This document shows positions 6,879-28,458 of a DNA stretch of 64,000 nt, piece by piece. A model generated the notes under the pieces. The model made no database searches. It was not told the DNA's origin and saw only the letters and a list, made by a program, of their open reading frames with translations. Origin of the DNA: Myxococcales bacterium. GTDB lineage: Bacteria; Myxococcota_A; Polyangia; Polyangiales; Houyiibacteriaceae. Where the stretch lies: assembly GCA_020430775.1 (NCBI GenBank), contig JAGQJE010000169.1, positions 2,343 to 66,342 of the forward strand, read 5' to 3'. Numbering within the stretch: the first letter of the stretch is position 1; every line of letters begins with the position of its first letter. Position numbers and translations under genes: made by a program.

Positions 6879-8090
6879 GACCGGTAGTCCGCGTTGATGC
6901 GCACGTACTCGTGGCCGATGTCGCAGGTGGTGTAGTGCGCGGCGGCCGTACCGGCGCCGAGATCGACGCGCACGGTGTACTCCGCGCGCTTCATCACCGC
7001 GGCCGCCTCGCGCTCGACGGCGTCGTCGCGCACGGGGAGCCCCCGCGCGAACACCGTCACGTCGCCGATCCGGACCCGCACCTTCGACGGGTCGAAGCGC
7101 ACCCCGGCGCGGCCCGCCGCGGCGACGATGCGGCCCCAGTTCGGGTCGCAGCCGTGCAGCGCCGTCTTGACGAGCAGCGAGGTCGCGATGGCGCGCGCCA
7201 CCCGCAGCGCGCCCGGGTCGTTCGGGGCGCGCGCGACCTCGATGCGCACCAGGTGCTCGGCCCCCTCGCCGTCCGCGACGATCATCAGGGCCACGGCCGA
7301 GAGCGCCTCCGTGAGCGCGCCCTCGAGGCGCCGCGCGCTCGCGCTGTCCGCCGAGATCGACGCGCCCCCGAGCGCACCGGAGGCCATCGCGACCACGGTG
7401 TCGTTCGTGCTCGTGTCGCCGTCGACCGAGACGCGGTTGAAGGTCTGCTCGGTCGCCGAGCGGAGCGCCTTGCGCAGGACGGGGGCGCCCACCGGTGCGT
7501 CCGTGAGCACGAAGCCGAGCGTCGTCGCCATGTTCGGGTGGATCATGCCTGCGCCCTTCGCGATCGCGAGCACGGTGGCGTCGCGACGGCCGACCCGAAA
7601 GCGCGCGCAGGCGAGCTTCGGTCCGCGATCGGTGGTGAGGATGGCGTCGGCGAACGCGGCGGCGCCGCCCTCGTCGAGCGCGTCGACGAGGCGCGGCAGG
7701 CCCGAGACGATGGCGGTGACATCGAGCGGCTGGCCGATGACGCCGGTCGACGCCGGCAGGACGTGACGCGCCTCGCAGCCGAGCGCTCGGGCGAGCGCGC
7801 CGGTAGTGCGCTCGGCGTCGCGCACGCCCTGAGCGCCGGTGCAGGCGTTCGCGTTCCCGCTGTTGACGAGGATCGCTTGCGCGCGGCCCCGCCGCACGCG
7901 CTCGGCGGCGACCTCGACGGGCGCTGCGCGTACGAGGTTGCGCGTGAACACCGCCGCCGTCGGCACGGGGCGCTCTGCGACGATCGCGGCGAGGTCGGGC
8001 CGCCCCGACGCCTTGATGCCGCAGGCGACGCCCGCGAGCCGAAAGCCGGCGATCGGGGGCCAGCCCTGCGCCCCTCGGGCCTCCCGCGCG

Positions 8091-8098
<8 letters not shown>
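6875..8098 (-). CDS. argJ: bifunctional ornithine acetyltransferase / N-acetylglutamate synthase
   Basis: Motifs are FRLAGVACGIKASGRPDLA and the autoprocessing site HPNMATTLGFVLTDA. The C-terminus is YVRINADYRS. The likely start is TTG at 8098, overlapping the secA stop. The 484-aa track ORF extends into secA. Confidence 0.85.
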
Positions 8099-11294
<3,196 letters not shown>

Positions 11295-11488
11295 GCGCCG
11301 AGCGCTCCTCACCTAACGAGAGAGCCCCGCTCGACCTGCGTGCAGGGCGGGATCTCCATGAAAAACGGTGGAATTCGGGTCCAATCTACGCCTCGGCCCG
11401 ACGCGGCGCAACGACGCATCGGGCGCCCCGTCGCGCGGTCGACGTGGACAAGACGGCGCCCCTGCTCTACGAAGAGCCACTGGCCGCC

Positions 11489-11956
11489 GTGACACTGGAG
11501 ACACCCCCGGATCTCGATCGCCTGCGCGCTCGTCTCGACGAGTACATGACGCAGCACGGCCTGCGCTCGACGGCTCAGCGACGGCTCGTCACCGAGACCT
11601 TCTTCAGCAGTACGGGTCACCTGACCATCGACGACGTGCTCGAGCGCGTGCGTGAGCGCAACCCCAAGGTCGGCTACGCCACCGTCTACCGCACGCTCAA
11701 GCTCCTCGCGGAGTCGGGGCTCGCCTACGAGCGGCACTTCGGCGACGGCGCGTCGCGCTACGAGGTCGCGCGCGAGGACGAGCACCACGACCACCTCATC
11801 TGCCTCGACTGCGGGAAGATCGTCGAGTTCGAGGACGACGAGATCGAGCGCCTGCAGGTGGCGCTCGCGGAGCGCGAGGGGTTCGTGCTGAAGCGCCACA
11901 AGCACGAGCTGTACGGTCTGTGCCCGCGCTGCCGCGAGCGCGAGCGCGACGGATAG
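11489..11956 (+). CDS. Fur-family metalloregulator
   Basis: It has RSTAQRRLVTETFF...HLTIDDVLERV...VGYATVYRTLKLLAESGL (winged helix). It also has HHDHLICLDCGKIVEF...LYGLCPRC (HHDH plus two CxxC). GTG at 11489 is my best-guess start. Confidence 0.8.
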   Translation: MTLETPPDLDRLRARLDEYMTQHGLRSTAQRRLVTETFFSSTGHLTIDDVLERVRERNPKVGYATVYRTLKLLAESGLAYERHFGDGASRYEVAREDEHHDHLICLDCGKIVEFEDDEIERLQVALAEREGFVLKRHKHELYGLCPRCRERERDG

Positions 11957-11994
11957 CTGGCTGCGCCGCCACGGCCCCCAACGGCGCCGGCGTG

Positions 11995-14900
11995 CTACGG
12001 CTCGCGCGGGTCGGTGCCGAGCTCGCGCCGCAGGACGCGGGCGATGATCTCGACGTGCGGCTTTTGTAGCAGCGAGAGGTGCCCGCCGGGGGTCTCGATG
12101 ACGCGGACGCCGCGCGCGACCTTGCTCCAGCCGTAGTCCGAGTCGAAGTCGTAGCGGTCGAACGCGTGCTCTTCGCCGGCACGGAACAAGAGCAGCTCGC
12201 CGCCGTAGGTCGGCCGCGTCCGGTCCCACTCCGCCATCGCGTCGAGGAAGATGCGCTCGCGGACGCGCTGCAGGCGGAGGTCCTCGCCGGTCAGTTGCTC
12301 CTCGGGCGCGCCCTCGACCGCGTCCCGGGTCGCCTCCCGGACGCCGGCGAGCTGGGCGAGCCGTTCGAGGGCGCGCCCCGGGTTGCTCGAGTAGCGCTTG
12401 ACGGAGGCCGCGAGCCGGCGGCGTGTCGACTCGCGCAGGCTGTCGCTGCGCAGCGTGTCGAAGAGGGCGACGAAGCGCACGGTCTGCCCCTGGGCGCGGA
12501 GGCGGCGCGCGACCTCGACCGCGAGCGTGCCGCCGAACGACAGTCCGGCGAGCGCGTACGGCCCCGTGTGCTGCTTTCGCCGGATCGCGACGAGCACCTG
12601 ATCGGCGAGGCTCTCGACCGATGGGGGCTCGACGTACTCGCCGCGAGCGATCGCCTCTATCATCTGCCGTTCCGTCGGCACCATCACGGCGTAGACGCTG
12701 TGGCCGGGACCGAGCGCGCTCGCGAGCGGGTAGTAGAACGCGACGCCCATCAGGCAAAAGACGTTCACTCCGCCATCTTCTTCGCGGATCGGGACGAGCT
12801 CGGCGGTGTCGCGGTCGAGGTTCTGCTCGAAGAGCGCGGCGAGCCTCGCGGGCGTCGGGGCGTGGAACACGTGCGCGAGCGTGATCGGCGCCTTGGTCAG
12901 CCGGCGTAGCTCCGCGACGGCGCGCGCGGCGAGCAGGGAGTAGCCGCCCATCGCGAAGAAGTCGTCGTCGCGGTCGAAGACGGGCGCGCCGAGCAGCTCC
13001 CGAAAGACCGAGATGATGATCGCCTCCGTGTCGTTGCGCGGAGGTCGTACGCTCGCCGGCGCCGCGCGCTCCGAAGACACGCGGCGCCGGGCCTCGGGCA
13101 CCGGGAGCGCGTTGCGGTCGACCTTGCCGTTCGCGTTCTGCGGCAACGCGTCGAGCCACACGTGCGCCGCGGGGACCATGTAGTCCGGGAGGGTCTCCCG
13201 CAGCCGCCGGCCGATGTCGTCGAACGTCGCCGCCTCTCCGCGGTCGGGCTCGAGGCCCACGAGGTAGGCGACGAGCTGTAGCTCCCCGCTCGCCGCAGGC
13301 TGCGGGTGTACGACCGCCTCGCGGACCTCGGGCATCTGGCGCAGGCGCGCCTCGATCTCGCCGAGCTCGATGCGGAAGCCGCGCAGCTTCACCTGGTGAT
13401 CGCGCCGCCCGCAGAACTCGAGGCGACCATCCGGGCGCCAGCGGGCGAGATCGCCGGTGCGGTAGAGGCGCTCGCGGAGCGCGTCGCCGGCCGCGTCGCG
13501 ATCGACGAAGCGCTCCGCCGTGAGCTCTGGGCGGTTGCGGTAGCCGCGGGCGAGGCCGACGCCGCCGAGCCACAGCTCGCCGAGCACGCCGATGGGTACG
13601 GGCTGGAGGCGGCCATCGAGCACGCGGGCCGTCGTGCGTTCGATCGGCGCGCCGATCGTGATCGGCGCCGGCGTCTCGACGGGGTCGACGGTCGCGTAGA
13701 TCGTCGCCTCCGTCGGCCCGTAGCCGTTCCACAGGCGCAGGTCCTGGTCGAGCAGGGCGGCCGCCAGATCGCTCGGCAAGGCCTCACCGCCGGTGATGCA
13801 CTTGAGTCCGGCGCGGAGCGGCACGCCCGACGCGACGAGCAGGCGCCATGTGGCGGGGACCGCTTGCAAGACCGTGACGCGCTCGCGGTCGAGGAGCTCG
13901 CCGAAGGCGTGGGTCTCGAGGACCGCGTCCTGGGGCGCGAGGCAGACGGCGCCGCCGGTGCAAAGCGGCGCGAGCAGCTCGAGCAGCGCGATGTCGAAGC
14001 CCACCGTCGTGACGGCGAGCCAGCGGTCGAGGCGGCCGAGCTTGAGCCTGCGTTCGAACGCGGAGACGACGTTCGCGAGCCCCCGGTGATCGAGCTCGAC
14101 GCCCTTCGGCGTGCCCGTCGACCCCGACGTGTAGAGCACGTAGGCGAGGTCATCGAGCGCGACGCCTCGCGAGGCGGGTGGGGCGGGCGCTGTGGGCGCC
14201 GCGGGGGGCGCCGACGACGGTGGCGCGTCGACGACGAGCAGCCGTGCGTCGATGCCCGCGACGCGGTCGCTCGTGTCGCGCTCCACCACCGCGACGGTGG
14301 CGCCCGCGTCGTCGATGATGAGCTGCAGGCGCGCGCGAGGCTGCCGCGGATCGAGCGGGAGGAACGCGGCGCCCGCCTTCATCACGGCGAGCAGCGTGGC
14401 GATGAGGTCCGGCCCGCGGTCTAGGCAGACCGCGACGAGCGCGCCCGGCCCGGCCCCGAGCGAGCGCAGGCGCTCGGCGAGCGCCGCCGCGCGGGCGTCG
14501 AGCGCGGCGTAGGTGAGCCGCGTCTCGCCGAAGGTGACCGCCTCGGCGTCGGGCGCGTGCCTCGCCCAGTCGCTGAAGCGCGCCAAGACCGTCTCGAGCG
14601 GGGCGTCGTCCGGGGCCTCGGCCACGCTGAACCCGTCGAGCTCGCGTCGCTCGTCGTCCGGGAGGAGCGACAGGGCGTTGAGCGCCGTCGCGGCGCCCCG
14701 GGCGGCGGCGGCGTACAGCGTCGTCAGCTCGGCGAGGCGCCGCTTCACGGTGGCGGGCTTGAACAGGGCCTTGTTGAACGTGCACTCGAAGACGAGCCGC
14801 TCGCCCGCGTCCACGACGTTCAGGCCGAAGTCGAAGGGATCAAACGCGCGGGGGTTGCTCCAGGCCCGTCCCTCCGTGTCGCCGAAGCGCAGCGGCTCCA

Positions 14901-16047
14901 CCCGCGGATCGAGGTTGAAGGTGACGGGGACGAGCGGCACCCGGCTCGGATCGCGCGCGACCGCGAGCCGAGACAGCAGCGTGCCGAACGTGAAGTCTTG
15001 ATGCTCGAACGCGTCGAGGACGCGGTCCTGCGCTGCCTGCGCGTGCGCTGCGAACGAGGCCTCGCCGTCGACGCGCACGCGTACCGGGAGCATGTTCACC
15101 CAGTGGCCGACGAGGCCCTCTTCGCCGCGGCTGAGCTGCCCGGCCGCCGGGACGCCGATGACGACGTCGTCGAGCCCCGTCAGCCGGTACACGAACGCGC
15201 AGAAGCCGGCGAAGAGCGTCGCGAAGAGCGTCGCGCCGGTCGAGCGGGCGAGCGCCCGGAGGTCGGCCGTGAGCGCCGGGTCGAGCTCGAGGTCGATGCG
15301 CTGCGCACCGAAGGTCCTCGCCGCGGGGCGGTTGTAGTCGGCGGGTAGGTCGAGCGGGGCGGGGAGCGGTTCGAGCTGGGCGAGCCAGTACGCCTCGTCC
15401 GCGGCCGTAGCGCGGGCCATGTGCGCGCGGGCAGCGTCGGTGTGAGTGGGTGCGGGATCGAGGGTCGCCGCGCGGCCCTGCACCTCGGCGGTGTACAGCT
15501 CGGACAGCTCGCCGATGAAGACGCCCGCCGACCACCCGTCGAAGACGAGGTGGTGGGCGGTAAAGACGAGGCGGAGCGCGCGGTCCGGCATGCGCGCGAG
15601 CCAAGCGCGCGCGAGCGGGCCGGCTTGCAGGTCGAAGGGCGTCGCGACGTCGTGCGCCACGCGGTCGCGGAACGACGCCTCGGCGAGCTCGATGGGCAGC
15701 TTCGATAGGTCGACGTGCTCGATCGGGAGCCGCGCGTCGGCGCTGATGACGAAGGACGACCCGTCGGCCGCGAACGACCCGCGCAGGGCCTGGTGGCGGG
15801 CGACGCCTGCCAGCAGCGCGCGCTCGAGCGCGCCCTCGTCGACGCGTCCGCCAAGCTCGAGCGTCAGGCTCTCGTTGTAGGCGCAGTTGGCGGGTTCGCC
15901 GCCGAGCTCGACCGCGAGCCACATCTCGGACTGCGGCTCGGTGAGCGGGACCGTCGCCTCGATCGCGCCGCCCGCGAAGGGATCGAACCCGTCGTCGCCC
16001 ATCGAGTCGTGTGGCCGCTCTGTCGCGTCCTCGGTCCCCGTCGTCAT
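11995..16047 (-). CDS. non-ribosomal peptide synthetase, C-A-PCP-TE (terminating module)
   Basis: 1350 aa; ATG is preceded by gggggaggtg. C domain: HHLVFDGWS (approx nt 14638..15960). A domain: LAYVLYTSGSTGTPKGV, NGYGPTE, YRTGDLARW, GKVDR (13078..14595). PCP: FFAMGGYSLL (12823..13041). TE: GLSFGG ... GGH (12013..12780). Confidence 0.9.
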   Translation of the reverse strand: MTTGTEDATERPHDSMGDDGFDPFAGGAIEATVPLTEPQSEMWLAVELGGEPANCAYNESLTLELGGRVDEGALERALLAGVARHQALRGSFAADGSSFVISADARLPIEHVDLSKLPIELAEASFRDRVAHDVATPFDLQAGPLARAWLARMPDRALRLVFTAHHLVFDGWSAGVFIGELSELYTAEVQGRAATLDPAPTHTDAARAHMARATAADEAYWLAQLEPLPAPLDLPADYNRPAARTFGAQRIDLELDPALTADLRALARSTGATLFATLFAGFCAFVYRLTGLDDVVIGVPAAGQLSRGEEGLVGHWVNMLPVRVRVDGEASFAAHAQAAQDRVLDAFEHQDFTFGTLLSRLAVARDPSRVPLVPVTFNLDPRVEPLRFGDTEGRAWSNPRAFDPFDFGLNVVDAGERLVFECTFNKALFKPATVKRRLAELTTLYAAAARGAATALNALSLLPDDERRELDGFSVAEAPDDAPLETVLARFSDWARHAPDAEAVTFGETRLTYAALDARAAALAERLRSLGAGPGALVAVCLDRGPDLIATLLAVMKAGAAFLPLDPRQPRARLQLIIDDAGATVAVVERDTSDRVAGIDARLLVVDAPPSSAPPAAPTAPAPPASRGVALDDLAYVLYTSGSTGTPKGVELDHRGLANVVSAFERRLKLGRLDRWLAVTTVGFDIALLELLAPLCTGGAVCLAPQDAVLETHAFGELLDRERVTVLQAVPATWRLLVASGVPLRAGLKCITGGEALPSDLAAALLDQDLRLWNGYGPTEATIYATVDPVETPAPITIGAPIERTTARVLDGRLQPVPIGVLGELWLGGVGLARGYRNRPELTAERFVDRDAAGDALRERLYRTGDLARWRPDGRLEFCGRRDHQVKLRGFRIELGEIEARLRQMPEVREAVVHPQPAASGELQLVAYLVGLEPDRGEAATFDDIGRRLRETLPDYMVPAAHVWLDALPQNANGKVDRNALPVPEARRRVSSERAAPASVRPPRNDTEAIIISVFRELLGAPVFDRDDDFFAMGGYSLLAARAVAELRRLTKAPITLAHVFHAPTPARLAALFEQNLDRDTAELVPIREEDGGVNVFCLMGVAFYYPLASALGPGHSVYAVMVPTERQMIEAIARGEYVEPPSVESLADQVLVAIRRKQHTGPYALAGLSFGGTLAVEVARRLRAQGQTVRFVALFDTLRSDSLRESTRRRLAASVKRYSSNPGRALERLAQLAGVREATRDAVEGAPEEQLTGEDLRLQRVRERIFLDAMAEWDRTRPTYGGELLLFRAGEEHAFDRYDFDSDYGWSKVARGVRVIETPGGHLSLLQKPHVEIIARVLRRELGTDPREP

Positions 16048-16163
16048 CGTCGGTGCACCTCCCCCATCCTACGTTAGCGAATTCTGGAGAACGTCCCAAC
16101 AACGCTTGTCAAGCAGACGCAGGCGGCGGTGGTGGGCGCGCCGCGCGTACCGTCGCTGGACCG

Positions 16164-19100
16164 TCAGCCGACGCGCTTGTACTGCCCCGGGCGATCCGCG
16201 TCCGGAGCGAACCACGCCGGCTTGCCGTCGCGGTCGCGTCCGAGGCGCGCGCCGGGGACGGGCGGCTCGTCCGTGTGGAGCGCGGCCACCGGCTGGCGCT
16301 GCGGCGGGAAGAGCCCCGACGCCGACATGTCGGACGCGGCGCGCTTGAACGCCTCCTCGATGGCGGCGACGTCCGCGTCGGTGTGGGCGATCGTGAGGAA
16401 GTACGTCCGCCCGTGGAAGGCGTGGATCCCGTGGTAGCGGAGGTAGTACGCGAAGAGGGTCGGCATCGGCTCGGGCACGTCGCACGCCAACCTAAAGACC
16501 GAGGAGAACGAGCTGAGCCGCAGCGGCGCGTCGACGGCCGTGAAGTGCGCGTTGAGCCGCTCGACGAGCCCCGCGGTCCGCGCGTTGATCGCGTCGAGCA
16601 TGGCGTCGCCGCGCTCCTTCAAGAGCGACAGCGCCGCCTTCGACGCGGCGAGCGCGAGCGGGTGGCGGACGAAGGTGCCCGCGAAGTAGGTCACGCCCAC
16701 CTCGGGCGTCGAGTCGTCGCCGAAGCGCCAGGCGCCCCCGTCGAGCGCGTCCATGTATTTGCGCGAGCCGGCGATCCCCCCGATCGGCAGGCCGCCGCCG
16801 AGGATCTTGCCGTAGGTCGCGAGGTCCGCCTTCACGCCGAAGTGTGCCTGGGCGCCGCCGAGCGCGATGCGAAAGCCGGTGATCACCTCGTCGAAGATGA
16901 GCGCCACGCCGCGCTCGGCGGTCAGCTCGCGCAGCTCGCGCAAGAACGCCTTCGGCTGCAGCGCGACGTTCCGGCTCTGCACCGGCTCGACGAGCACCGC
17001 GGCGAGCGTGTCGGCGCGCTCGCGGAGGATGCGCAGCGACTCGGGCGCGCCGTACTCGAGCACGAGCGTGTTGGCGACCGCCTCGCGCAGGATGCCCGCC
17101 GAGGCGGGGAACGACCGGCCGCTCGGGCTGCCGCGCACGATCACCTCGTCGAAGATCCCGTGGTAGTCGCCGTCGAACATCGCGATGGTCTTCTTGCCGC
17201 TCACCGTGCGCGCGAGGCGCATCGCGCCCATCACCGCCTCGGAGCCCGTGTTGCACATCACGGCGCGCTCGTGGCCGGTCATCTCGCAGATCAGCTTGGT
17301 GACCTCGCCGGCGAGCGGGTGCTGCGGGCCGATCTCGATGCCGCGGTCGAGCTGCGTGTGGACGGCCTCGATGACCTCCGGGCACGAGTGACCGAGGAAG
17401 TCCGCGCCGAAGCCGCAGGTGACGTCGATGTACTCGTTGCCGTCGATGTCCCAGACACGGCTTCCCTTCGAGCGATCGACGAGCAGCGGGTAGGTCAGTT
17501 CCTTGATGAGCGGGTGAAAGCCGGTGACGACCCGCGGGTCGGCGAGGTGGGGCCGATCCTGGGCCGTCCTGTCCTTCGAGGCGCGGGTCCGGGCGACGTA
17601 GGCCTCCGTGAAACGCGCGAGGGCCTTCTGCTGGCGCGGGGTGAGCTGGTCCGCGCCGGCGTGCTCGATCCGCGCCTGCGCGCCGAACGCACGAGCAGGC
17701 CGGGCGGGCTCCTCCGTCGTGTCGCCGGTCGGCGCGGCCTCGGGCGCCGTCGCCGGTTGGGCGGGCTCCGCCGGCGGTGTCGCGGCGGCGCTCACCGGAC
17801 TCGGCGCGGGCGCGGCGACGGCGGGGGTGGGCGCGGGCGCGGCGACCGGGGGCGCGGCACCGAGCAGCGCGAGCTGGCGCTGCATGAGCTCGAGCTGCTG
17901 CGCGATCACCGCCTGCACGGTGCCCGGCGCGGCGTCGATCGCGGTGACCGGCATCGCGAGCGCTGCGATCGGCTGCGCGGTCCCAGCGACACCCCCGGAC
18001 GCCGGGGCGGTCGGCGCGGCCGGGGCAGCCGTGGGATCCGGCGGCGGCTCGGGCGCTGCGAAACGGTCCGGCGGGAGCTCGGCGTCGAGGTAAGCGGCGA
18101 GCGCGCTCGGCGTCGACAGGTCGCGCATGAGCTGCCGGAAGGTGAGCGCGACGTCGAAGCGGCGCTTCAGGCTGAGCGACGCCTGCGTGAGCAGCAGCGA
18201 ATCGAGGCCCATCTCGACGAAGGGCATGTCGCTCGGGAGCTCCGACAGAGACAGGCCCGAGGTCTCCTCGAGGACCTCGGCGATGATCGGGATCAGCCGT
18301 TCGGTGCGGGTCATGGTGGGGGCTTTCTCAGGAGGCGCCGCGGCGACGGCGGAGGCCGGCGCAGCGCGCGGGGCGGGAGCCGAGACGCGCGCGGGCGGCG
18401 CGTCCGGGCTCGTGGTCTTGGTGGTCTTCGCGTGTGGCTCGGACAGGGCGAGGTGGTAGCGCTCGCGTTCGAACGCGTACCCGGGGAGCGACACCCGGCG
18501 CGCGCGTCCGAGCGGCCAGCGCGCGCTCGCGTCGAAGCGCACGCCGGCGACCCAGAGCCGCGCGAACGCCCGGCGAGCGGCGACGCGCTCTTCGCTGACG
18601 TCGCCCCCCGCGCCCAGCGCGGCGACCACGGCGCGGCTCGAGCCGCGATCGAGGCTGCGGCGGCAGAGCGCGGCGGCCGTGCCTCGCGGGCCGCAGTCGA
18701 GGACCGCGTGCTCGGTCTCGGCGAAGAGCCGGGCCGCCGCGTCCGCGAAGCGCACGGGCTCGCGCGCGTGTCGCGCCCAGTACCCCGGGTCCGTGGCCTG
18801 CTCCGGCCGCAGCCAGTCGCCGGTGACGCTCGAGACGATGGGCACCTCCGCCGGGTGCAGGGTCATGGTCGCGGCGAGCGCGCGGAGCGGCTCGACGATG
18901 GGGTCCATCATCGCCGAGTGGAACGCGTGGGAGGTGCGGAGCATCCGGCACGCGATGTCGCGGCGCTCGAGCGCGGCCGCGACCGCACGCACCGGCGCCT
19001 CCTCGCCGCCGACCACGCAGTCGCGCGGGCCGTTGATGGCGGCGAGCGCGACGCCCGGCACGAGCTCGGTCTCGATGTCCGCCGCCGCGGCGCGAACCGA

Positions 19101-22100
19101 CAGCATCGCGCCCGGGGGCAGCGCCTGCATCAGCCGGCCGCGTTCTGCGATGAAGCGCAGGGCGTCTCGCTCCGAGAGCACCCCCGCGAGGCACGCGGCG
19201 ACGAGCTCGCCGATGCTGTGGCCGATCATCGCCGCCGGTCGCACCCCCCAGCGCTCCCATTGGCGCGCGACGGCGTAGGACACGCAGAAGATGGCCGGCT
19301 GCGTGTAGCGCGTCTCGGTGAGCGCCGCCGCCGCCTCGTCGGTGTCGCGGTCCGTCGCGTGCAGCATGGCGCGCACGTCGAACCCCGCGACCGCCTCGAG
19401 CTCCGCGGCGCAGCGATCGAGGGTCTCGCGGTAGACGGCCTCGTCTTCGTAGAGCGACCTGCCCATCCCGGGGTGCTGCGCGCCCTGCCCGGGGAACGCG
19501 AACGCGACCGACACGTCATCGCGCTCGACGTGGCCACGGAAGGCGTCCGCCGGGCGCTCACCGCGGAGCGCCGCGGCGCCGCCGGCGAGGTCTTCGCAGA
19601 CGACGGCGCGTCGGAAGGGGAGCTCGGCCCGGCCGGTCTCGAGCGTGAACGCGACGTCCTGGGGGGCGAGCGCCGGGTCGCCCTCGAGGCGCGCCGCGAG
19701 CGCGTCAGCGGCTGCGTCGACCGAGGCCTCGGTCTTCGCGCTGAGCGTGAGGACGTACGCGCCGCCGGAGCCGACCGTCGCGGGCGCGCCGCGCTCGGGT
19801 GCTTGCTCGAGCACCACGTGCGCGTTGGTCCCCCCGACGCCGAACGAGCTGACGCCGGCGCGGCGCGGCCCAGGCAGGGCAGGCCACGCGCTGCGTTCGG
19901 CCGACACGCGGAAGGGGCCACCCGCGAAGTCGAGGTGCGGGTTCGGGCGGCGGAAGTGCAGCGTCGGGGGCAGCTCGCCGTGCTCGATCGCCAGCGCGGT
20001 CTTGATCAGCCCGATGACGCCGGCGGCGGCCGCGAGGTGGCCGAGGTTGCCCTTTATCGCGCCGAGCACGCGCGAGCCCGGCTCGAGCCGCCCGTCGGCC
20101 GCGAACGCGCGGTTGAGCCCGTCCAGCTCGATGGGATCGCCGAGCGCGGTGCCGGTCCCGTGCGCCTCGACGTACCCGATGCCCGCGGCCGGTAGGCGCG
20201 CGTCCCGGAGGGCGTCGACGATGACCGTGGCTTGGCCTGCCGCGCTCGGCGCCGTGTAGCTCACCTTCCGCGCGCCGTCGTTGTTGATCGCCGTGCCGCG
20301 GATGACGGCGTAGATCCGGTCGCCCGCCGCGAGCGCGTCGCTCAGGCGCCGCAGCACGACGAGACCCCCGCCGTCGCTGAAGAGCGTGCCGCTCGCGTCC
20401 GCGTCGAAGGGGCGGCAGCGCCCGTCCGCCGAGCGCATCCCGCCCTCGATGTGCGGATAGCCGACGTTCGCGGGAAACGCGAGGGTCATGCCACCGGCGA
20501 GCGCGAGGTCCGAGCTGCCGTCGCGCAGGCTCTGCACGGCCTCGTGGACGGCGACCAGACCCGTCGAGCAAGCCGTGTGCACCGAGACGGCGGGGCCGGT
20601 GAGGTCGAGCTTGTACGCGACGCGTGAGGCGACGTAGTCCTTCTCGTTGGCGATGGTGAGCGCGGTCTCGCCGATCGTCCGCCACAGGTCCGCGCGCGGC
20701 GCCACGTAGGACGTGAAGTAGGTGTTGTTCATCGTGCCGGCGAAGACCCCGCACCTGCCGGTGATGCGCCCCGCCGGAGTGCCCGCGTCTTCGAGGGCGT
20801 GCCAGGCGAGCTCGAGCAGCGCGCGCTGCTGCGGGTCCGTGATCTCCGCCTCCCGCTTGCCTACGCCGAAGAACGCCGCGTCGAAGGTGTCGCCGCCGGG
20901 GACCACGCCGCGCGCCCGGACGTATCCCGGGTCGCGGCGGTCGGCTTCGCTCACGCTCGGGTCGAGGTCGTCGTCGTCGAAGCGATCGATGCTCTCGACT
21001 CCGTCGAGCAGGTGCTGCCAGAAGGTGTCGAGGTCCTCGGCGCCCGAGACGCGCACCGCCATGCCGATGATCGCGACCGGCTCGCCGGCGTGGTCGGTGG
21101 CGGACGGCCCGCTCGACGCGTGCGCACGTTCAGCCGCCGCGGCGCCGCCCGAAGCAGCGGCGCCGTCGCGCGCCTCGATCCACCGGCAGAGCCCCCGCAC
21201 CGTCGGCTCGGCGAAGAGCTGCACGACGGGCACCTCGACGCCGTGCGTACGCTCGAGCGCGGCGATCGCGCTCACCGCGAGCACGGACGTACCGCCGAGA
21301 TCGAAGAAGCCGTCGTCGATGCCGACCCGGTCGAGGCCGAGGACGTCCGCCCACACGCCGGCGAGGGCGCGCTCGAGCGCAGAGGCTGGCGGGCGGTACG
21401 GCGCCGACAACGCGGGCCGCTCGCGCGTGGGCGCGGGCAAGGCGCCGCGGTCGACCTTGCCGTTCGCGCTCAAAGGGAGGGCGTCGAGCACGACGTAGGC
21501 CGACGGCACCATGTAGTCCGGCAGGCGCGCGCGGAGCGCCTCGCCGAGCGCGGCGGGATCGAGCGCGGGCGCCTCGGCCTCGGTCGGGCCCGCGGCTACG
21601 AGATACGCGACGAGCTGCTGGGCGCCCGACGGCGCCGGCTGCGGCTGCACCACCGCCTCGGCCACCTCCGGAAGCGCGAGCAGCGCCGCTTCGATCTCGC
21701 CGAGCTCGATGCGGTAGCCTCGGATCTTCACCTGGTGGTCGCGGCGCCCGTGGTAGGTCAGCCGCCCGTCGGGTTCCCGGCGGACCAGATCGCCCGTGCG
21801 ATAGAGGCGCTCCGGCAGCTCCGCGCCGTCCGGGGCGCGGTCGACGAAGCTCTGCGCGGTGCGCTCGGGCCGCCCGAGGTAGCCGCGCGCGAGCCCGAGG
21901 CCGCCGAGGCAGAGCTCGCCGGCGACCCCGTCCGGGACCGGTCGCAGCGCGTCATCGAGCACGTACGCGCGCATGCCGTCGATCGCGCGGCCGATGGTGA
22001 TCGGGGACGGCTCGACGATGGCGTCGACCGTGGCGCAGATGGAGGCCTCCGTCGGGCCGTAGGCGTTCCACAGGCGTACGCCGCGCTCGAGGAGCGCGCC

Positions 22101-23171
22101 GGCGAGATCGGGCGCCAGCGCTTCGCCGCCGGTGACGCACTTGAGCCCGCGCGGGAGCGGTACTTCGCGGTCGACGAGGAGGCGCCACGTCGTGGCCACC
22201 GCCTGCAGGACGGTCGCGCGCTCTCGGGCGAGCAGGGCCCCGAAGCGCTTCGGATCGAGCACCGCGCCCTGCGGGGCGAGGCAGACCGTGCCGCCGACGC
22301 AGAGCGGCAGGAGCAGCTCCATCACGGCCGGGTCGAACCCCACGGTCGTCACGGCGAGCCAGCGATCTGCGGCGCTCAGATCGAGCAGCCGCTCGAACGC
22401 GGCGAACACGTTGGCGAGCCCCCGGTGGGGGACCTCGACGCCCTTCGGCCGGCCCGTCGAGCCGGACGTGTAGATGACGTAGCAGAGGTCGTCGAGGGAG
22501 GGTTCGGCAGCCGGCGGCGCCACCGCCGGGGCCTCGTCGATGGGTGCTGACGGGTCGTCGAGGACGAGCACGCGGGCGCCGGTCCCCTCGACGTGCCCCC
22601 GCGTGCGCTCCTCGGTGAGCGCGACCTTCGCGGCGGCGTCCTCGATGATGTAGCGGACGCGCTCCGGGCTCTGCTCGGGGTCGAGTGGCAGGAACGCCCC
22701 GCCCGCCTTCAGGACGGCGAGCAACGACACGATGAGGTCCGGTCCGCGGCCGAGGCAGACCGCGACCAGCACGTCCGGGCCGACGCCGGCCTCGGTCAGG
22801 CGCGCCGCGAGCCCGTTGGCGCGGCCCTCGAGCTCGCCGTAGGTCAGGCGCGCGCCGTCGAAGGCGACCGCCTCGGCCTGCGGGCGCGCGCGGACCTGCT
22901 CGGCGATGCGGTGGTGGATCGGGACGAGCCCGGCTTCAGCGGCGGCGTGCGCTGCCTTGGGCGTCGCTCGCAGGTGGGCCCCACCGCGGTTGGTCACTCC
23001 GGGGGTTCGCTCGTCTCGGTTACGCTCGTGTGCCAGTTCGGACACCCCTTGCCTTCGGTCGACGCGCGTTTTTGGCCGCCGGTCCGCGGCGAGCGTCGAC
23101 CGAACCAGCATGCCCAATCGACCGGTAGGAGGGCAACCGGGCGGTTCGAAGCGACGCGGGCGCCGCCCCAT
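16164..23171 (-). CDS. hybrid NRPS-PKS with C-terminal aminotransferase domain: A-PCP-KS-AT-ACP-AMT
   Basis: Up to 2335 aa. A: LCYVIYTSGSTGRPKGV, NAYGPTE, YRTGDLVR, GKVDR (21402..22919). PCP: FFDLGGTSV (21177..21383). KS: HTACSTG, EAHGTGT, GNLGH (19797..21083). AT: GHSIGE, HAFHS (18612..19511). ACP: GLDSLL (18078..18299). Class-III PLP aminotransferase: NTGSEAVMGAMRLAR, FDEVITGFR, ATYGKILGGGLPIGG (16302..17654). The true start is probably ATG 23111, because ATG 23171 sits in a hairpin loop. Confidence 0.9.
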   Translation of the reverse strand: MGRRPRRFEPPGCPPTGRLGMLVRSTLAADRRPKTRVDRRQGVSELAHERNRDERTPGVTNRGGAHLRATPKAAHAAAEAGLVPIHHRIAEQVRARPQAEAVAFDGARLTYGELEGRANGLAARLTEAGVGPDVLVAVCLGRGPDLIVSLLAVLKAGGAFLPLDPEQSPERVRYIIEDAAAKVALTEERTRGHVEGTGARVLVLDDPSAPIDEAPAVAPPAAEPSLDDLCYVIYTSGSTGRPKGVEVPHRGLANVFAAFERLLDLSAADRWLAVTTVGFDPAVMELLLPLCVGGTVCLAPQGAVLDPKRFGALLARERATVLQAVATTWRLLVDREVPLPRGLKCVTGGEALAPDLAGALLERGVRLWNAYGPTEASICATVDAIVEPSPITIGRAIDGMRAYVLDDALRPVPDGVAGELCLGGLGLARGYLGRPERTAQSFVDRAPDGAELPERLYRTGDLVRREPDGRLTYHGRRDHQVKIRGYRIELGEIEAALLALPEVAEAVVQPQPAPSGAQQLVAYLVAAGPTEAEAPALDPAALGEALRARLPDYMVPSAYVVLDALPLSANGKVDRGALPAPTRERPALSAPYRPPASALERALAGVWADVLGLDRVGIDDGFFDLGGTSVLAVSAIAALERTHGVEVPVVQLFAEPTVRGLCRWIEARDGAAASGGAAAAERAHASSGPSATDHAGEPVAIIGMAVRVSGAEDLDTFWQHLLDGVESIDRFDDDDLDPSVSEADRRDPGYVRARGVVPGGDTFDAAFFGVGKREAEITDPQQRALLELAWHALEDAGTPAGRITGRCGVFAGTMNNTYFTSYVAPRADLWRTIGETALTIANEKDYVASRVAYKLDLTGPAVSVHTACSTGLVAVHEAVQSLRDGSSDLALAGGMTLAFPANVGYPHIEGGMRSADGRCRPFDADASGTLFSDGGGLVVLRRLSDALAAGDRIYAVIRGTAINNDGARKVSYTAPSAAGQATVIVDALRDARLPAAGIGYVEAHGTGTALGDPIELDGLNRAFAADGRLEPGSRVLGAIKGNLGHLAAAAGVIGLIKTALAIEHGELPPTLHFRRPNPHLDFAGGPFRVSAERSAWPALPGPRRAGVSSFGVGGTNAHVVLEQAPERGAPATVGSGGAYVLTLSAKTEASVDAAADALAARLEGDPALAPQDVAFTLETGRAELPFRRAVVCEDLAGGAAALRGERPADAFRGHVERDDVSVAFAFPGQGAQHPGMGRSLYEDEAVYRETLDRCAAELEAVAGFDVRAMLHATDRDTDEAAAALTETRYTQPAIFCVSYAVARQWERWGVRPAAMIGHSIGELVAACLAGVLSERDALRFIAERGRLMQALPPGAMLSVRAAAADIETELVPGVALAAINGPRDCVVGGEEAPVRAVAAALERRDIACRMLRTSHAFHSAMMDPIVEPLRALAATMTLHPAEVPIVSSVTGDWLRPEQATDPGYWARHAREPVRFADAAARLFAETEHAVLDCGPRGTAAALCRRSLDRGSSRAVVAALGAGGDVSEERVAARRAFARLWVAGVRFDASARWPLGRARRVSLPGYAFERERYHLALSEPHAKTTKTTSPDAPPARVSAPAPRAAPASAVAAAPPEKAPTMTRTERLIPIIAEVLEETSGLSLSELPSDMPFVEMGLDSLLLTQASLSLKRRFDVALTFRQLMRDLSTPSALAAYLDAELPPDRFAAPEPPPDPTAAPAAPTAPASGGVAGTAQPIAALAMPVTAIDAAPGTVQAVIAQQLELMQRQLALLGAAPPVAAPAPTPAVAAPAPSPVSAAATPPAEPAQPATAPEAAPTGDTTEEPARPARAFGAQARIEHAGADQLTPRQQKALARFTEAYVARTRASKDRTAQDRPHLADPRVVTGFHPLIKELTYPLLVDRSKGSRVWDIDGNEYIDVTCGFGADFLGHSCPEVIEAVHTQLDRGIEIGPQHPLAGEVTKLICEMTGHERAVMCNTGSEAVMGAMRLARTVSGKKTIAMFDGDYHGIFDEVIVRGSPSGRSFPASAGILREAVANTLVLEYGAPESLRILRERADTLAAVLVEPVQSRNVALQPKAFLRELRELTAERGVALIFDEVITGFRIALGGAQAHFGVKADLATYGKILGGGLPIGGIAGSRKYMDALDGGAWRFGDDSTPEVGVTYFAGTFVRHPLALAASKAALSLLKERGDAMLDAINARTAGLVERLNAHFTAVDAPLRLSSFSSVFRLACDVPEPMPTLFAYYLRYHGIHAFHGRTYFLTIAHTDADVAAIEEAFKRAASDMSASGLFPPQRQPVAALHTDEPPVPGARLGRDRDGKPAWFAPDADRPGQYKRVG

Positions 23172-23190
23172 GTAGGACGGCGCCCGCGTC
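23153..23190 (-). terminator. strong GC hairpin between hppA and the NRPS-PKS gene (terminator or attenuator candidate)
   Basis: A perfect 13-bp inverted repeat, gacgcgggcgccg (23153..23165) and cggcgcccgcgtc (23178..23190), has a 12-nt loop. No U-tract follows it. Confidence 0.35.
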
Positions 23191-23225
23191 GAGTGGGTCG
23201 CCCGCGCGCGGCGGGCGGTCGTGGC

Positions 23226-25328
<2,103 letters not shown>

Positions 25329-25363
25329 CTCTCCTACCCCGCGAGTGCGGGTCGAGTGGCGCG

Positions 25364-25391
25364 TTCATAGTGTATTTTGACGGTCCGTCAA
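25364..25391 (-). promoter_or_regulatory. candidate hppA promoter
   Basis: On the minus strand: TTGACG (25391..25386), a 16-nt spacer, then TATGAA (25369..25364). About 35 nt further on comes gtaggagaggtg and the ATG at 25328. Confidence 0.4.
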
Positions 25392-25393
25392 AA
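25375..25393. promoter_or_regulatory. perfect 9-1-9 palindrome overlapping the hppA -35 (operator candidate)
   Basis: ttttgacgg t ccgtcaaaa, in a locally AT-rich stretch. Confidence 0.4.
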
Positions 25394-25481
25394 CGCGGCG
25401 GTCATTTGTAGCTCGGGCGGGCCAGGCCGAGCGGCCGCTGCGCCCGCCGGCAAAGCGCACGCATGCGCGCCCGGGCGGACG

Positions 25482-26411
25482 TCAGCCGCGGCGGTGCTCC
25501 TCGATGGCGGCCCGCACGCCGGCGACGTCGGCCATCGTCTCGACGTTCATCCGCGCGAGGGTCTTGTCGATGCGACGGATGAGCCCGGTGAGCACCTTGC
25601 CCGGTCCGATCTCGACGAAGAGGGTGGCGCCGTCCGCCGCCATGCGCTCGACCGTCTCCTCCCAGCGCACCGGACGACTCACCTGCCTCCGGAGCGCGTC
25701 CCGAGCGGCCTCTGCGTCGCGGACCGGGCGCGCGTCGGCGTTGACGTACACCGGCACCGAGGGGTCGCGCATGGGCGTCGCGGCGAGGTCCGGGGCGAGC
25801 CGCTCGGCGGCGGGCTCCATGAGCGAGGTGTGAAACGGCGCGCTCACGGGCAGGGCCGTCACGCGCGCGCCGCCGGCCCGCAGCACCTCCGCGGCGGCCG
25901 CGACCGCGCCGGCCGCCCCGGCGATGACTATCTGGCCGGGGCAGTTGTAGTTCGCGGCCTCGACCACGCCGTCCACGGCCGCGCAGGCCTCGTCGACCGC
26001 GCTGCGCTCCGCCTTCAGCACGGCGACCATGGCGCCGTCGCCCACCGGGACGGCGTCCTGCATATAGCCCCCGCGGCGCCGGACGAGCCGCACGGCGTCC
26101 GCGAGCTCGAGCGTGCCCGCGGCGACGTGCGCGCTGTACTCGCCCAGCGAGTGACCCGCCGCCATGTCGCAGCGCCGGTCGAGCGCCCGCAGCAGCGCGA
26201 CCGATGTCGTCAGGATCGCCGGCTGGGTGTTCTCCGTCAGCCGCAGGGCGTCCTCCGGCCCGTCGAAGCAGAGGCTCGAGAGCGACTCGCCCAGCGCCGC
26301 GTCGGCGGCGTCGAAGACCTCGCGGGCGCGCGCGGAGGCCTCGGCCGCGTCCCGGCCCATCCCGACCCTCTGGCTACCCTGCCCCGGAAACACGAAAGCG
26401 ACCTTGCCCAT
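25482..26411 (-). CDS. fabD: malonyl-CoA:ACP transacylase
   Basis: Motifs are MGKVAFVFPGQGSQRVGMG, GHSLGEYSA and QNTQPAIL-type LTENTQPAILTTSVA. 309 aa. Confidence 0.9.
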   Translation of the reverse strand: MGKVAFVFPGQGSQRVGMGRDAAEASARAREVFDAADAALGESLSSLCFDGPEDALRLTENTQPAILTTSVALLRALDRRCDMAAGHSLGEYSAHVAAGTLELADAVRLVRRRGGYMQDAVPVGDGAMVAVLKAERSAVDEACAAVDGVVEAANYNCPGQIVIAGAAGAVAAAAEVLRAGGARVTALPVSAPFHTSLMEPAAERLAPDLAATPMRDPSVPVYVNADARPVRDAEAARDALRRQVSRPVRWEETVERMAADGATLFVEIGPGKVLTGLIRRIDKTLARMNVETMADVAGVRAAIEEHRRG

Positions 26412-26491
26412 GTGCCGGGGGATAGCACGGCATGGGGCGCCTCGCTGGACGCGTCGTTGACAGGTCCCGCGCCCGACTCTAACCATGCGGC

Positions 26492-26743
26492 ATGATCGAG
26501 CCGAGCGAGATCGAGGCGCGCATCCGGACCGGTGTCGAGGGGGTCGAGCACGTGGTCGTGCGCGACCTCACCGGGACGAAGGACCACTTCGCGGCGACCG
26601 TCGTCGCGGCGGCCTTCGAGGGCAAGTCGCGCGTCGCCCAGCACCAGCTCGTGTACCGGGCGCTCGGTGAGCTCGTCGGCGGGGCCGTCCACGCGCTCGC
26701 GCTCGAGACCCACACCCCGGCTTCGTGGGCCGAGCGCGCCTGA
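26492..26743 (+). CDS. BolA-family protein
   Basis: 83 aa. GTKDHFAATVVAAAFEGKSRVAQHQLVYRAL...VHALALET is the BolA signature layout. It sits immediately upstream of a monothiol glutaredoxin. Confidence 0.8.
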   Translation: MIEPSEIEARIRTGVEGVEHVVVRDLTGTKDHFAATVVAAAFEGKSRVAQHQLVYRALGELVGGAVHALALETHTPASWAERA

Positions 26744-26779
26744 GGCGCCTCGCTCGCACCGTTTGGAGGATCGACGGAG

Positions 26780-27118
26780 ATGGACGCTGAGCTGAAGACT
26801 CGCCTCGAGGCGCTCGTGCGCGACAACCCGATCGTGCTCTTCATGAAGGGCACCAAGCACTTTCCGCAGTGCGGCTTCTCGGCGGCGACCGTCGAGATGC
26901 TGCGCCGCACCGGGGCGGATTTCATCACCGTGAACGTCCTCGAGGATCCCGCGGTGCGTCAGGGCATCAAAGAGTTTTCGAGCTGGCCGACGATCCCCCA
27001 GCTCTACGTCCGCGGTGAGTTCATCGGCGGCTGCGACATCGTCCGCGAGATGTACGACTCCGGCGAGCTCCAGAAGCTCGTGGACGGCGTGTCAGTAGCG
27101 GGCGAGGCCTCCGCCTGA
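26780..27118 (+). CDS. grxD: Grx4-type monothiol glutaredoxin
   Basis: Motifs are VLFMKGTKHFPQCGFS (CGFS active site), WPTIPQLYVRGEFIGGCDI. Confidence 0.9.
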   Translation: MDAELKTRLEALVRDNPIVLFMKGTKHFPQCGFSAATVEMLRRTGADFITVNVLEDPAVRQGIKEFSSWPTIPQLYVRGEFIGGCDIVREMYDSGELQKLVDGVSVAGEASA

Positions 27119-27132
27119 CGCCTACGGCGCGT

Positions 27133-28458
27133 TCAGCGCGCCGCTGGGGCGTCGAGCTTCGCCCGCGCGACCTCCGAGCCCGGGTCGCGCGCCAGGGCGG
27201 CGCGCCAGTCTTCGCGCGCGGCGGCCTCGTCGTGAGCGGCCTCGTCGAGCAACCCGAGGTTGAGCCACGGGTTCGCGTCGGTCGGGTCGAGCGCCGCGGC
27301 GCGCTCGAAGGCCTTGCGCGCCGCGTCCGGGTGACCGGCGTGCATCAGCGCCGCGCCGCGTCCGTTATGGGCGGCGGCCAGGTCGGGCGCGAGCGCGAGC
27401 GCCTTGTCGAACGCTCGCACCGCGTCATCGAGCGCGGCGTCGGCGACCAGGGCGTTGCCGAGCTTGAGCCACGCGGTCGGGTCCTGGCCGTCGCGGTCGG
27501 TCGCCTCGCGGTAGTACACGAGCGCCTCGTCGATGCGGCGCGCGCGCAGGTACAGGTCACCGAGGGCGAGGGCGGGGGCGGGGTCGTTCGGCGCGAGATC
27601 GGCCGCCCGCTGAAAGTCGGCGGCCGCCGCGTCGGCGAGCCCGAGGTCCATCGCCGCGAGCCCACGCCCGAGACGCGCTTGCGCCTCTTCGCCCGGCGTG
27701 TGGGCGGCGGCGAGCGCCGTCGAGAACGCCGTCTTCGACAGCTCAGGCTGGTGCGCCGCGCGAAGCGCGCGGCCGAGGTCGATCCAGGCTTCGAGGTCGC
27801 GCTCGTTGAGGCGCACGGCGTCGCGGTAGGCGGCCTCGGCGCCTTCGAGGTCTCCCGTCGCCTCGCGCGCGCGCCCGAGGCGGTCCGCGACGTAGCCGGA
27901 CTTCGGGACGCGCCTCGCGAGCCCCTCGAGCGCGGCGAGCGCCGCCTTCGGCTCGCCGCGCGCGAGGGCGAGCGCTCCGCTCAGCAGCAGCGCCCGCGGA
28001 TCGTCCGGCGCGAGCGACAACGCCGCGTTCGCGTGCAGGGTGGCCTCCGCGAGGTCGGTCCGGCGCCACGCGAGCGTCCCGGCCAGCACGCGCAAGCGCG
28101 CCGTCCAGCCGAGGCGGGCGCGCGCCGAGTCGAGCGCCGTCTCGGCCTTCGGGAGGTCGCCTTCTTCGAGCGCTTCGATCGCGCGGGCGTAGTCTAGCTC
28201 TCCCTCGACGTGGGTGCGCTGGTCGTCGCTCACGCCGAGCTCGAGCGCCTGTGAGAGCGCGGCGCGCGCGGTCGACGCCTGGAGGCGGTCGAGCGCTGGC
28301 GCCTCGAGGAGCCCGGCGCCGAGGCGCGCGTCTGCCTTCTGGACGAGCGCGGCCGCCTCGCGCTCTCGCCGGACCCGCTCGACGCCCCGCCACGCGAGGC
28401 TGACAGAGAGCAAGATGGCCGCCGCGACCAGGCCGGCGAGCACCGCGCGTGAAGACAT
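27133..28458 (-). CDS. membrane-anchored TPR-repeat protein
   Basis: The N-terminal TM is AVLAGLVAAAILLSVSLAW. It is followed by about 10 TPR-like A..A...Y..AL..DP repeats. Confidence 0.7.
   Translation of the reverse strand: MSSRAVLAGLVAAAILLSVSLAWRGVERVRREREAAALVQKADARLGAGLLEAPALDRLQASTARAALSQALELGVSDDQRTHVEGELDYARAIEALEEGDLPKAETALDSARARLGWTARLRVLAGTLAWRRTDLAEATLHANAALSLAPDDPRALLLSGALALARGEPKAALAALEGLARRVPKSGYVADRLGRAREATGDLEGAEAAYRDAVRLNERDLEAWIDLGRALRAAHQPELSKTAFSTALAAAHTPGEEAQARLGRGLAAMDLGLADAAAADFQRAADLAPNDPAPALALGDLYLRARRIDEALVYYREATDRDGQDPTAWLKLGNALVADAALDDAVRAFDKALALAPDLAAAHNGRGAALMHAGHPDAARKAFERAAALDPTDANPWLNLGLLDEAAHDEAAAREDWRAALARDPGSEVARAKLDAPAAR

Follow-up and report, generated by a model that had tools for sequence, protein, structure and literature searches.

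A two-protein peptide-polyketide assembly line with an in-line aminotransferase, member of a family spanning many bacterial phyla and predicted to make a vicinal-diamine dipeptide

Here, we describe two adjacent genes in a 64,000-nucleotide stretch of DNA from a Myxococcales bacterium (contig JAGQJE010000169.1 of assembly GCA_020430775.1; the whole stretch is called the window below, and coordinates are those of the window unless another locus is named). Gene A (16164..23171, minus strand; longest open reading frame (ORF) 2335 aa) encodes a hybrid nonribosomal peptide synthetase-polyketide synthase (NRPS-PKS) with adenylation (A), peptidyl carrier protein (PCP), ketosynthase (KS), acyltransferase (AT), acyl carrier protein (ACP) and aminotransferase (AMT) domains in that order. 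Gene B (11995..16047, minus strand; a 1350-aa ORF) encodes an NRPS termination module made up of condensation (C), A, PCP and thioesterase (TE) domains. We propose, at a probability that we put at roughly 60%, that the two proteins form a complete, probably functional and horizontally inserted NRPS-PKS-NRPS assembly line with a beta,gamma-diaminoacyl dipeptide as its predicted product. The domain set, the intact motifs, the relationship of the aminotransferase, the membership in a family of similar loci and the insertion context of the gene pair are directly established.

The in-line aminotransferase and the domains around it

Our proposal turns on the domain that ends gene A, an AMT domain dependent on pyridoxal phosphate (PLP) at 16305..17645 on the minus strand (residues 1843-2289; residue numbers throughout are those of the longest ORF), which Pfam matches to Aminotran_3 over residues 1894-2208 (2.5e-52). 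When the last 501 residues of gene A are compared with the PDB, query positions 9-455 align to the AMT domain of MycA (6KFM/6KFU) with an E-value of ~1e-118, and identity to 6KFM is 44% over 444 positions of a 447-residue span. The best match to HemL, the glutamate-1-semialdehyde aminomutases, has an E-value of 4.5e-57 and an alignment that begins only at residue ~60; the N-terminal extension of ~50 residues that precedes this point is present in the MycA AMT and absent from HemL. Because the MycA match is far stronger and the N-terminal extension is shared, the domain is by these comparisons an in-line AMT of the MycA type and not a HemL enzyme. The PLP residues are kept, with the Schiff-base Lys in TYGK, the DE pair in FDEVITGFR and the GSEA loop in NTGSEAV all aligning with 6KFM. 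A first-pass annotation of this DNA, which had proposed a fused class-III aminotransferase like MycA, had named the loss of these residues from a proper alignment as grounds for giving its reading up; the residues are in place, so that on this count its reading is not refuted.

The position of the domain also follows MycA logic: it comes straight after the ACP of a KS-AT-ACP module that lacks a ketoreductase (KR), and the next domain, on gene B, is a C domain. In MycA, the AMT transfers an amino group from Gln to an ACP-bound beta-ketothioester (PMC3870968); this reaction is documented for MycA alone, and for the window domain it is a prediction. A protein search with the AMT region returns thousands of relatives, the best of them 55-60% identical and many of them ACP-AMT fragments on short contigs; among the matches listed from species-representative genomes the best AMT, 64% identical, is in a metagenome-assembled genome (MAG) of the Polyangiaceae.

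Ahead of the AMT, gene A encodes one adenylation-carrier module and one PKS module, with domain boundaries that we take from Pfam and that NCBIfam agrees with; all domains named here and for gene B lie on the minus strand. The first adenylation domain, A1 (21456..22904, residues 90-572, with AMP-binding at 90-432 and AMP-binding_C at 492-572), is followed by PCP1 (21177..21368, residues 602-665, LGGTS) and by the KS (19953..21083, residues 697-1073), whose Cys-His-His triad lies in TACST, EAHGTGT and KGNLGH. The top PDB match of the KS-AT region is an 8xju-type polyketide synthase, and the KS also matches KS domains from NRPS/PKS hybrids, ClbK and 6mhl among them. Pfam KS-AT linker families cover the stretch between the KS and the AT (18621..19502, residues 1224-1517), which bears GHSIG at 1317 and SHAFHS at 1415. 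By its GHSIG and HAFH motifs the AT is of the malonyl type, in a cis-AT type I PKS module. The ACP (18075..18314, residues ~1620-1699), with Ser1658 in GLDSL, is joined to the AMT by an Ala/Pro-rich low-complexity linker (17646..18074, residues ~1700-1842) that has no domain match.

Gene B follows at a spacing of 116 nt, so that its C domain (14638..15960, residues 30-470, HHLVFDG) lies downstream of the AMT; this C domain is preceded by GFDPFAGG...EPQSEMW. The second adenylation domain, A2 (13123..14577, residues 491-975, with AMP-binding at 491-836 and AMP-binding_C at 897-975), PCP2 (12832..13017, residues 1011-1072, GGYSL) and a TE (12025..12744, residues 1102-1341, with its Ser in GLSFG and its His in GGH) complete the module. 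Both A domains contain the A3, A4, A5, A7, A8 and A10 motifs, both have Asp235 (FDPAVME in A1, FDIALLE in A2) and Lys517 (NGKVDR), and they score 430 and 432 bits against the NCBIfam amino-acid adenylation model TIGR01733. Neither gene has a Pfam match to the KR, dehydratase (DH), enoylreductase (ER) or methyltransferase families. The 11 kb of reading frame across the two genes run without interruption, and every catalytic motif is intact. The first-pass annotation had read the same domain order from motifs, along with an intact Asp235, a malonyl-type AT with HAFHS and the lack of KR, DH and ER domains, and on each of these points the domain models and motifs agree with it.

A family of related loci and its gene junction

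Scanning one genome per species in a GTDB-based collection, we confirmed at least 596 relatives of this locus. The counts that follow come from the best 80 of these, whose AMT domains are 50-64% identical to that of the window, and domain layouts were mapped by tblastn with the window domains. The order A-T-KS-AT-AMT, where T stands for a carrier domain, is present in 60 of 81 loci, and most of the others are interrupted by contig ends. The second carrier is mostly missing from these maps, its probe (residues 1691-1790) having sat on the low-complexity linker rather than on the real ACP at residues 1620-1699. The exact arrangement of the window, with A-T-KS-AT-AMT and then C-A-T-TE on two adjacent co-directional genes, recurs in 29-31 of the 80 best loci, including members in Mucilaginibacter, Pedobacter, Parapedobacter, Spirosoma, Flavobacteriales, Chitinophagaceae and Chamaesiphon. 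Related layouts occur in Gemmataceae, Pirellulaceae, Victivallales and Acidobacteriaceae, and a variant with an extra C domain, with or without a carrier, after module 2 occurs in Variovorax, Lysobacteraceae, Dokdonella and Pseudoxanthomonas. A starter C domain is found in two loci from cyanobacteria, and in one other Myxococcales MAG (L001) the pieces are split and extended by a KS-KR-ACP-TE protein. By architecture and similarity, the window locus is a member of a widespread and conserved family that spans many phyla and dozens of genomes. The label of orphan that the first-pass annotation had given it does not hold, since the identical architecture is found in several phyla and the layout had already appeared in a 2013 survey discussed below.

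Eight Variovorax loci and four Lysobacteraceae loci carry the extra C domain and carrier without an accompanying A domain, which suggests that a third building block is loaded in trans in these members. Some proteobacterial members additionally have one or two further T-TE units.

Conservation in the family extends to the junction between the two genes. A gene break right after the AMT, together with a conserved tail, is found in 74 of 80 loci; the tail consensus is PPVPGARLGRDxDGxPAWFVPDPxxPGKY, or in looser form GARLGRDxxGxPAWFxPDxxxPGxY. In the 20 gene starts that we inspected, the next gene opens with (D/E)FDPFAG...EPQxE(I/M)W. The C-terminal tail of gene A in the window, PPVPGARLGRDRDGKPAWFAPDADRPGQYKRVG (16167..16304, minus strand), belongs to this motif, and the window bears both sides of the junction, ...PGARLGRDRDGKPAWFAPDADRPGQYKRVG in gene A and ...DDGFDPFAGG...EPQSEMW at the N-terminus of gene B (~15960-16047). 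From their joint conservation, the gene A tail and the gene B N-terminus may be a docking pair, and we know of no earlier description of it.

Beside the gene pair, the sole conserved accessory gene among the best loci encodes an Sfp-type phosphopantetheinyl transferase (PPTase) of ~250 aa, and this is a feature of a Bacteroidota subset: it directly follows the C-A-T-TE gene in 23 Bacteroidota loci (for example at 15538-16278 of locus L004). As it is absent from most members outside the Bacteroidota, the PPTase gene does not define the family as a whole. Neither a Fur neighbor nor linkage to a transporter or receptor gene is conserved across the family loci.

Building blocks, predicted product and genomic setting

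From an alignment of 133 A domains, we took the residues at the ten specificity positions, using columns anchored on A2 of the window. In the family, the codes of A1 are mostly those for Pro (DVQFMAQVVK, DVQFIAHVVK, DVQIFSQVVK), Val (DALWLGGTFK) and Thr (DFWNIGMVHK), with codes for Ser, Asp and Gln now and then, while the A2 code in most loci is that for Gly (DILQLGMIWK and close variants, pattern DILQLG[ML][IV]WK) and otherwise one for Val, Asn, Pro or Ser. The recovery of textbook codes from the family A domains validates the code extraction and makes an amino-acid starter the rule; read from these codes, the rule for the family would be an amino acid, malonate, amination and Gly. A2 of the window has the code DILQIGGIYK, which has DILQ.G.I.K in common with the family Gly code and smaller residues at 322 (G) and 331 (Y). 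The same variant occurs in one locus each of Lysobacter (L070) and Luteibacter (L016), and we read it tentatively as a Gly-like code, a variant of the family one. Among solved structures, both A domains of the window are closest to module 2 of LgrA, which activates Gly, a match that faintly hints at small substrates.

The two A domains of the window are closer to each other than to anything else in the family. A1 and A2 are 63% identical in protein and 73% identical in DNA over 1481 nt (21432-22919 vs 13102-14580), neither exceeds 46% identity to any other A domain of the family, and the two are sisters in a neighbor-joining tree. The carrier domains of the window are not duplicated, and A1 is not orthologous to the family starter A domains with their Pro, Val and Thr codes. 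Because the paralogy of A1 and A2 far exceeds their identity to other family A domains, we conclude from these comparisons that the original starter A domain was evidently swapped, by duplication within the cluster, for a copy of A2 that later diverged at five of the ten code positions. The window copy of the family would be a natural example of rewiring at the level of modules, its starter A domain having given way to a duplicate of A2.

For the chemistry of all steps, the identity of the substrates and the mode of release, we infer a route from NRPS/PKS logic and from the MycA precedent. Since Asp235 and Lys517 are present in A1, the starter should be an alpha-amino acid, which A1 would adenylate and load onto PCP1. 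The KS would condense this starter with malonyl-ACP provided by the malonyl AT, giving a gamma-amino-beta-ketoacyl-ACP that undergoes no reduction, and the AMT would then turn the beta-keto group into a beta-amine, leaving a beta,gamma-diaminoacyl-ACP with a vicinal diamine. The gene B protein would dock at this stage, possibly through the gene A tail and its own N-terminal motif, and its C domain would couple the chain to a Gly-like residue activated by A2. Finally, the TE would free a small pseudo-tripeptide, through hydrolysis or through ring closure, in which the beta-amine would attack and give a seven-membered 1,4-diazepane-2,5-dione; attack of the gamma-amine would give an eight-membered ring and is less likely. 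The carrier proteins would be activated by a PPTase encoded elsewhere in the genome. We extend this route to other members only tentatively: that the whole family makes an undescribed class of dipeptide-sized vicinal-diamine compounds, through an in-line AMT acting on an aminoacyl-derived beta-keto thioester and maybe with diazepanedione release, is a generalization to which we give somewhat less than even odds.

The gene pair is set among housekeeping genes, as had been noted before: hppA (23226-25328, minus strand) lies upstream, and a Fur-family gene (11279-11956, plus strand), SecA (8091-11312, minus strand) and ArgJ (6875-8329, minus strand) lie on the other side. One relative, with an 81%-identical hppA, lacks the cluster and has the order Grx-BolA-...-FabD-like AT-hppA-[MFS, PGI, ROK]-Fur (opposite strand)-SecA-ArgJ. 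The window keeps the same hppA...Fur-SecA-ArgJ frame and has the two synthetase genes where this relative has MFS-PGI-ROK, and a second relative has yet other genes after hppA. The intervals compared are 11957-23225 in the window, 13087-16732 in L092 and 12371-15854 in L093. Because the content of the interval varies between relatives and the housekeeping frame is constant, the cluster appears to be an insertion in a variable hppA-fur interval, which is consistent with horizontal acquisition. No mobile-element genes flank the cluster, integrases, tRNAs and repeats not having been looked for at the junctions. G+C is ~72% across the whole window, and that of the cluster matches that of the host.

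Two neighboring genes were considered as parts of the cluster and set aside. One encodes a FabD-like acyltransferase (25482-26486, minus strand; a 334-aa ORF, 309 aa as called) that adjoins hppA, with BolA and glutaredoxin genes next in line; it was rejected as a trans-AT for the cluster, since it stays beside hppA in relatives without the cluster. The other is the Fur-family gene, which in the relative without the cluster has the same position on the secA-argJ side.

The ~180 nt between hppA and gene A (23046..23225, minus strand) are the presumed promoter region. In public gene calls on identical metagenome contigs, gene A starts 181 nt past the hppA stop, at a GTG at ~23045, so that the first 42 residues of the longest gene A ORF, rich in Arg and Pro, are probably untranslated. 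Directly 3' of the hppA stop codon lies a GC-rich inverted repeat, CGCCCGCCGCGCGCGGGCG (23185-23215, minus strand), a possible terminator hairpin, lacking a T tract, that would separate hppA from gene A. Neither MbtH nor an Sfp-type PPTase turned up in a tblastn and regex scan of the 64 kb, in agreement with the first-pass annotation, and the scan gave no additional NRPS/PKS domains; the island itself holds no regulator or exporter gene.

Metagenome contigs add a view of the population. The protein encoded by hppA matches, at 100% identity, one annotated in a Myxococcales MAG. Of the 15 metagenome contigs that carry this hppA, the ten analyzed match window positions 18442-27343. Between these ten and the window the differences are one synonymous single-nucleotide polymorphism within gene A, a single substitution outside gene A and an N-gap in a scaffold; the rest is 100% identical, and at this near-identity a test for selection from population variation is uninformative. 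All ten contigs stop at or inside gene A, which explains the absence of the full-length proteins from the protein database, and one has an N-run at window positions 21140-21149 in a GGC/GCC-rich stretch; assemblers evidently fail within gene A.

Alternatives and relation to known systems

Several observations weigh against the proposed assembly line or against parts of it. The A1 code of the window, DPMQVGAICK, matches no textbook code and is unique among the family A domains. The TE is only 25-33% identical to the TEs of family members, which makes the proposed release chemistry less certain. The window has no PPTase gene nearby, unlike the 23 Bacteroidota loci, and a scan for promoters and terminators gave sites no more often than expected from shuffled sequence, with no sigma-70 consensus in the hppA-gene A region. 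The organism is an uncultured Myxococcales MAG. Finally, a free gamma-amine beside a beta-keto thioester could cyclize on its own ahead of amination or condensation, giving a tetramic acid or a gamma-lactam.

This last point underlies the alternative that survives best, which we nevertheless consider unlikely. In it, early attack by the starter amine on the ACP thioester sets free a tetramic acid, or after amination a 4-aminopyrrolidin-2-one (with Pro starters, a 1-aminopyrrolizidin-3-one), and gene B acts on another substrate or takes a minor flux. The amine would indeed be free, as A1 has neither a starter C domain nor an N-acylating enzyme ahead of it in the window and in 58 of 60 complete loci, and on general chemical grounds five-membered lactams should form easily from gamma-amino thioesters. 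However, the C-A-T-TE gene is kept directly downstream in nearly all loci, as are the tail and gene break at the frequency given above. Such strict retention of the downstream module and of the tail/N-terminus pair speaks for hand-over to module 2 as the selected route.

We give slightly less credence still to the idea that the cluster is a silent or decaying relic, a horizontally acquired island that is not expressed or is non-functional in its host. The island has no PPTase, MbtH, transporter or regulator gene and no promoter-like site, and the interval in which it sits varies between relatives. Against this, all motifs are intact in 11 kb of uninterrupted frame, G+C matches the host, and the identical sequence occurs on ten metagenome contigs; moreover, myxobacteria normally use PPTases encoded elsewhere to activate their carrier proteins.

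A metallophore under Fur control, in the form of a small chelator with N and O donors, is improbable. The Fur-family gene and the end of gene B are 38 nt apart, and a vicinal diamine with an amide and a carboxylate could chelate metals, but the Fur gene is convergent with gene B and occupies the same place beside secA-argJ in the relative without the cluster. There are likewise no genes for a siderophore receptor or transporter or for making hydroxamates or catecholates, and the Fur neighbor is not conserved in the family. Least probable is a PLP domain that has some other chemistry, as an aminomutase or a decarboxylase, or that is skipped: its best named NCBIfam matches are HemL aminomutases, but the E-value of 1e-118 to the MycA AMT vs 1e-57 to HemL, the N-terminal extension and the same place after the ACP and before the C domain all speak against it.

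The diaminoacyl assembly line that we favor is not a new kind of system, as every one of its domains is canonical and its architecture is present in many public genomes. No characterized cluster or named product for this architecture appears in the full-text literature that we searched, a coverage that does not extend to subscription literature; papers on flavipulchrin, on Pseudovibrio and on solanimycin were set aside as matches, since they describe other architectures. The value of the locus is as a pointer to a minimal gene pair, free of tailoring genes, that spans many phyla and includes cultured members in Mucilaginibacter, Pedobacter, Spirosoma, Variovorax and Lysobacter. If our reading is true, the family would be a widespread source of small metabolites and a programmable assembly-line route to beta,gamma-diamino acids, the first such route to vicinal diamines of this type. 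Its range, which takes in Bacteroidota, cyanobacteria, planctomycetes and myxobacteria, would then suggest a shared ecological role that is as yet undescribed.

The nearest catalogued relatives are in a 2013 survey of PLP domains, which lists C6XWU5 of Pedobacter heparinus as A-CP-KS-AT-CP-PLP and F7QBN5 of Salinisphaera as C-A-CP-KS-AT-CP-PLP-C-A-CP (CP, carrier protein; PMC3870968). The catalogued A-CP-KS-AT-CP-PLP proteins and the loci of our scan (L004-L081) resemble the window in domain order, in the split over two genes, in the tail motif and perhaps in a Gly-type A2. They differ in having mostly Pro, Val or Thr starters and, in many Bacteroidota, a PPTase, whereas in the window one A domain is a duplicate whose code is non-standard, and a PPTase is lacking.

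MycA and ItuA of mycosubtilin and iturin synthesis (6KFM, 6KFU) share with the window a KS-AT-ACP-AMT series followed by C-A-PCP, and the conversion of a beta-keto group into a beta-amine on the ACP is expected in both; the AMT module of McyE would likewise work as that of the window does. MycA is primed with a long-chain fatty acid by an acyl-ligase, has the next C domain in cis and leads to a lipoheptapeptide, whereas the window line would take an amino-acid starter, has the AMT at the end of its protein and would add one more residue. On the side of gene B, AB3403 (4ZXH), EntF (5JA1) and SrfA-C (2VSQ) have the same C-A-PCP-TE layout and align with it over its full length. These proteins take the usual acyl or peptidyl donors from NRPS partners, while the donor expected for gene B is an ACP-bound beta-amino acyl chain from a PKS.

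For the vicinal diamine itself, two known pathways provide functional analogies. In the BioF/BioA steps that lead from 7-keto-8-aminopelargonic acid (KAPA) to 7,8-diaminopelargonic acid (DAPA), BioA, a class-III PLP enzyme, aminates a ketone beside an amine-bearing carbon, acting on the free acid with S-adenosylmethionine as donor, and guadinomine synthesis uses an aminomalonyl extender. Neither of these is an in-line AMT working on an aminoacyl-derived thioester, as we propose for the window. A parallel in the logic of the module is found in the aminoacyl-primed PKS modules of bleomycin (BlmVIII), of detoxin and rimosamide, and of the dolaproine unit of dolastatin, which contain a KR and produce gamma-amino-beta-hydroxy acids of the statine type. 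There, as is expected for the window line, a hybrid KS lengthens a PCP-bound amino acid by a single malonyl-type unit. The statine-type modules then act on the beta-keto group with a KR; in the window an AMT takes the logical place of the KR, and an amine is therefore predicted where the statine-type modules give a hydroxyl.

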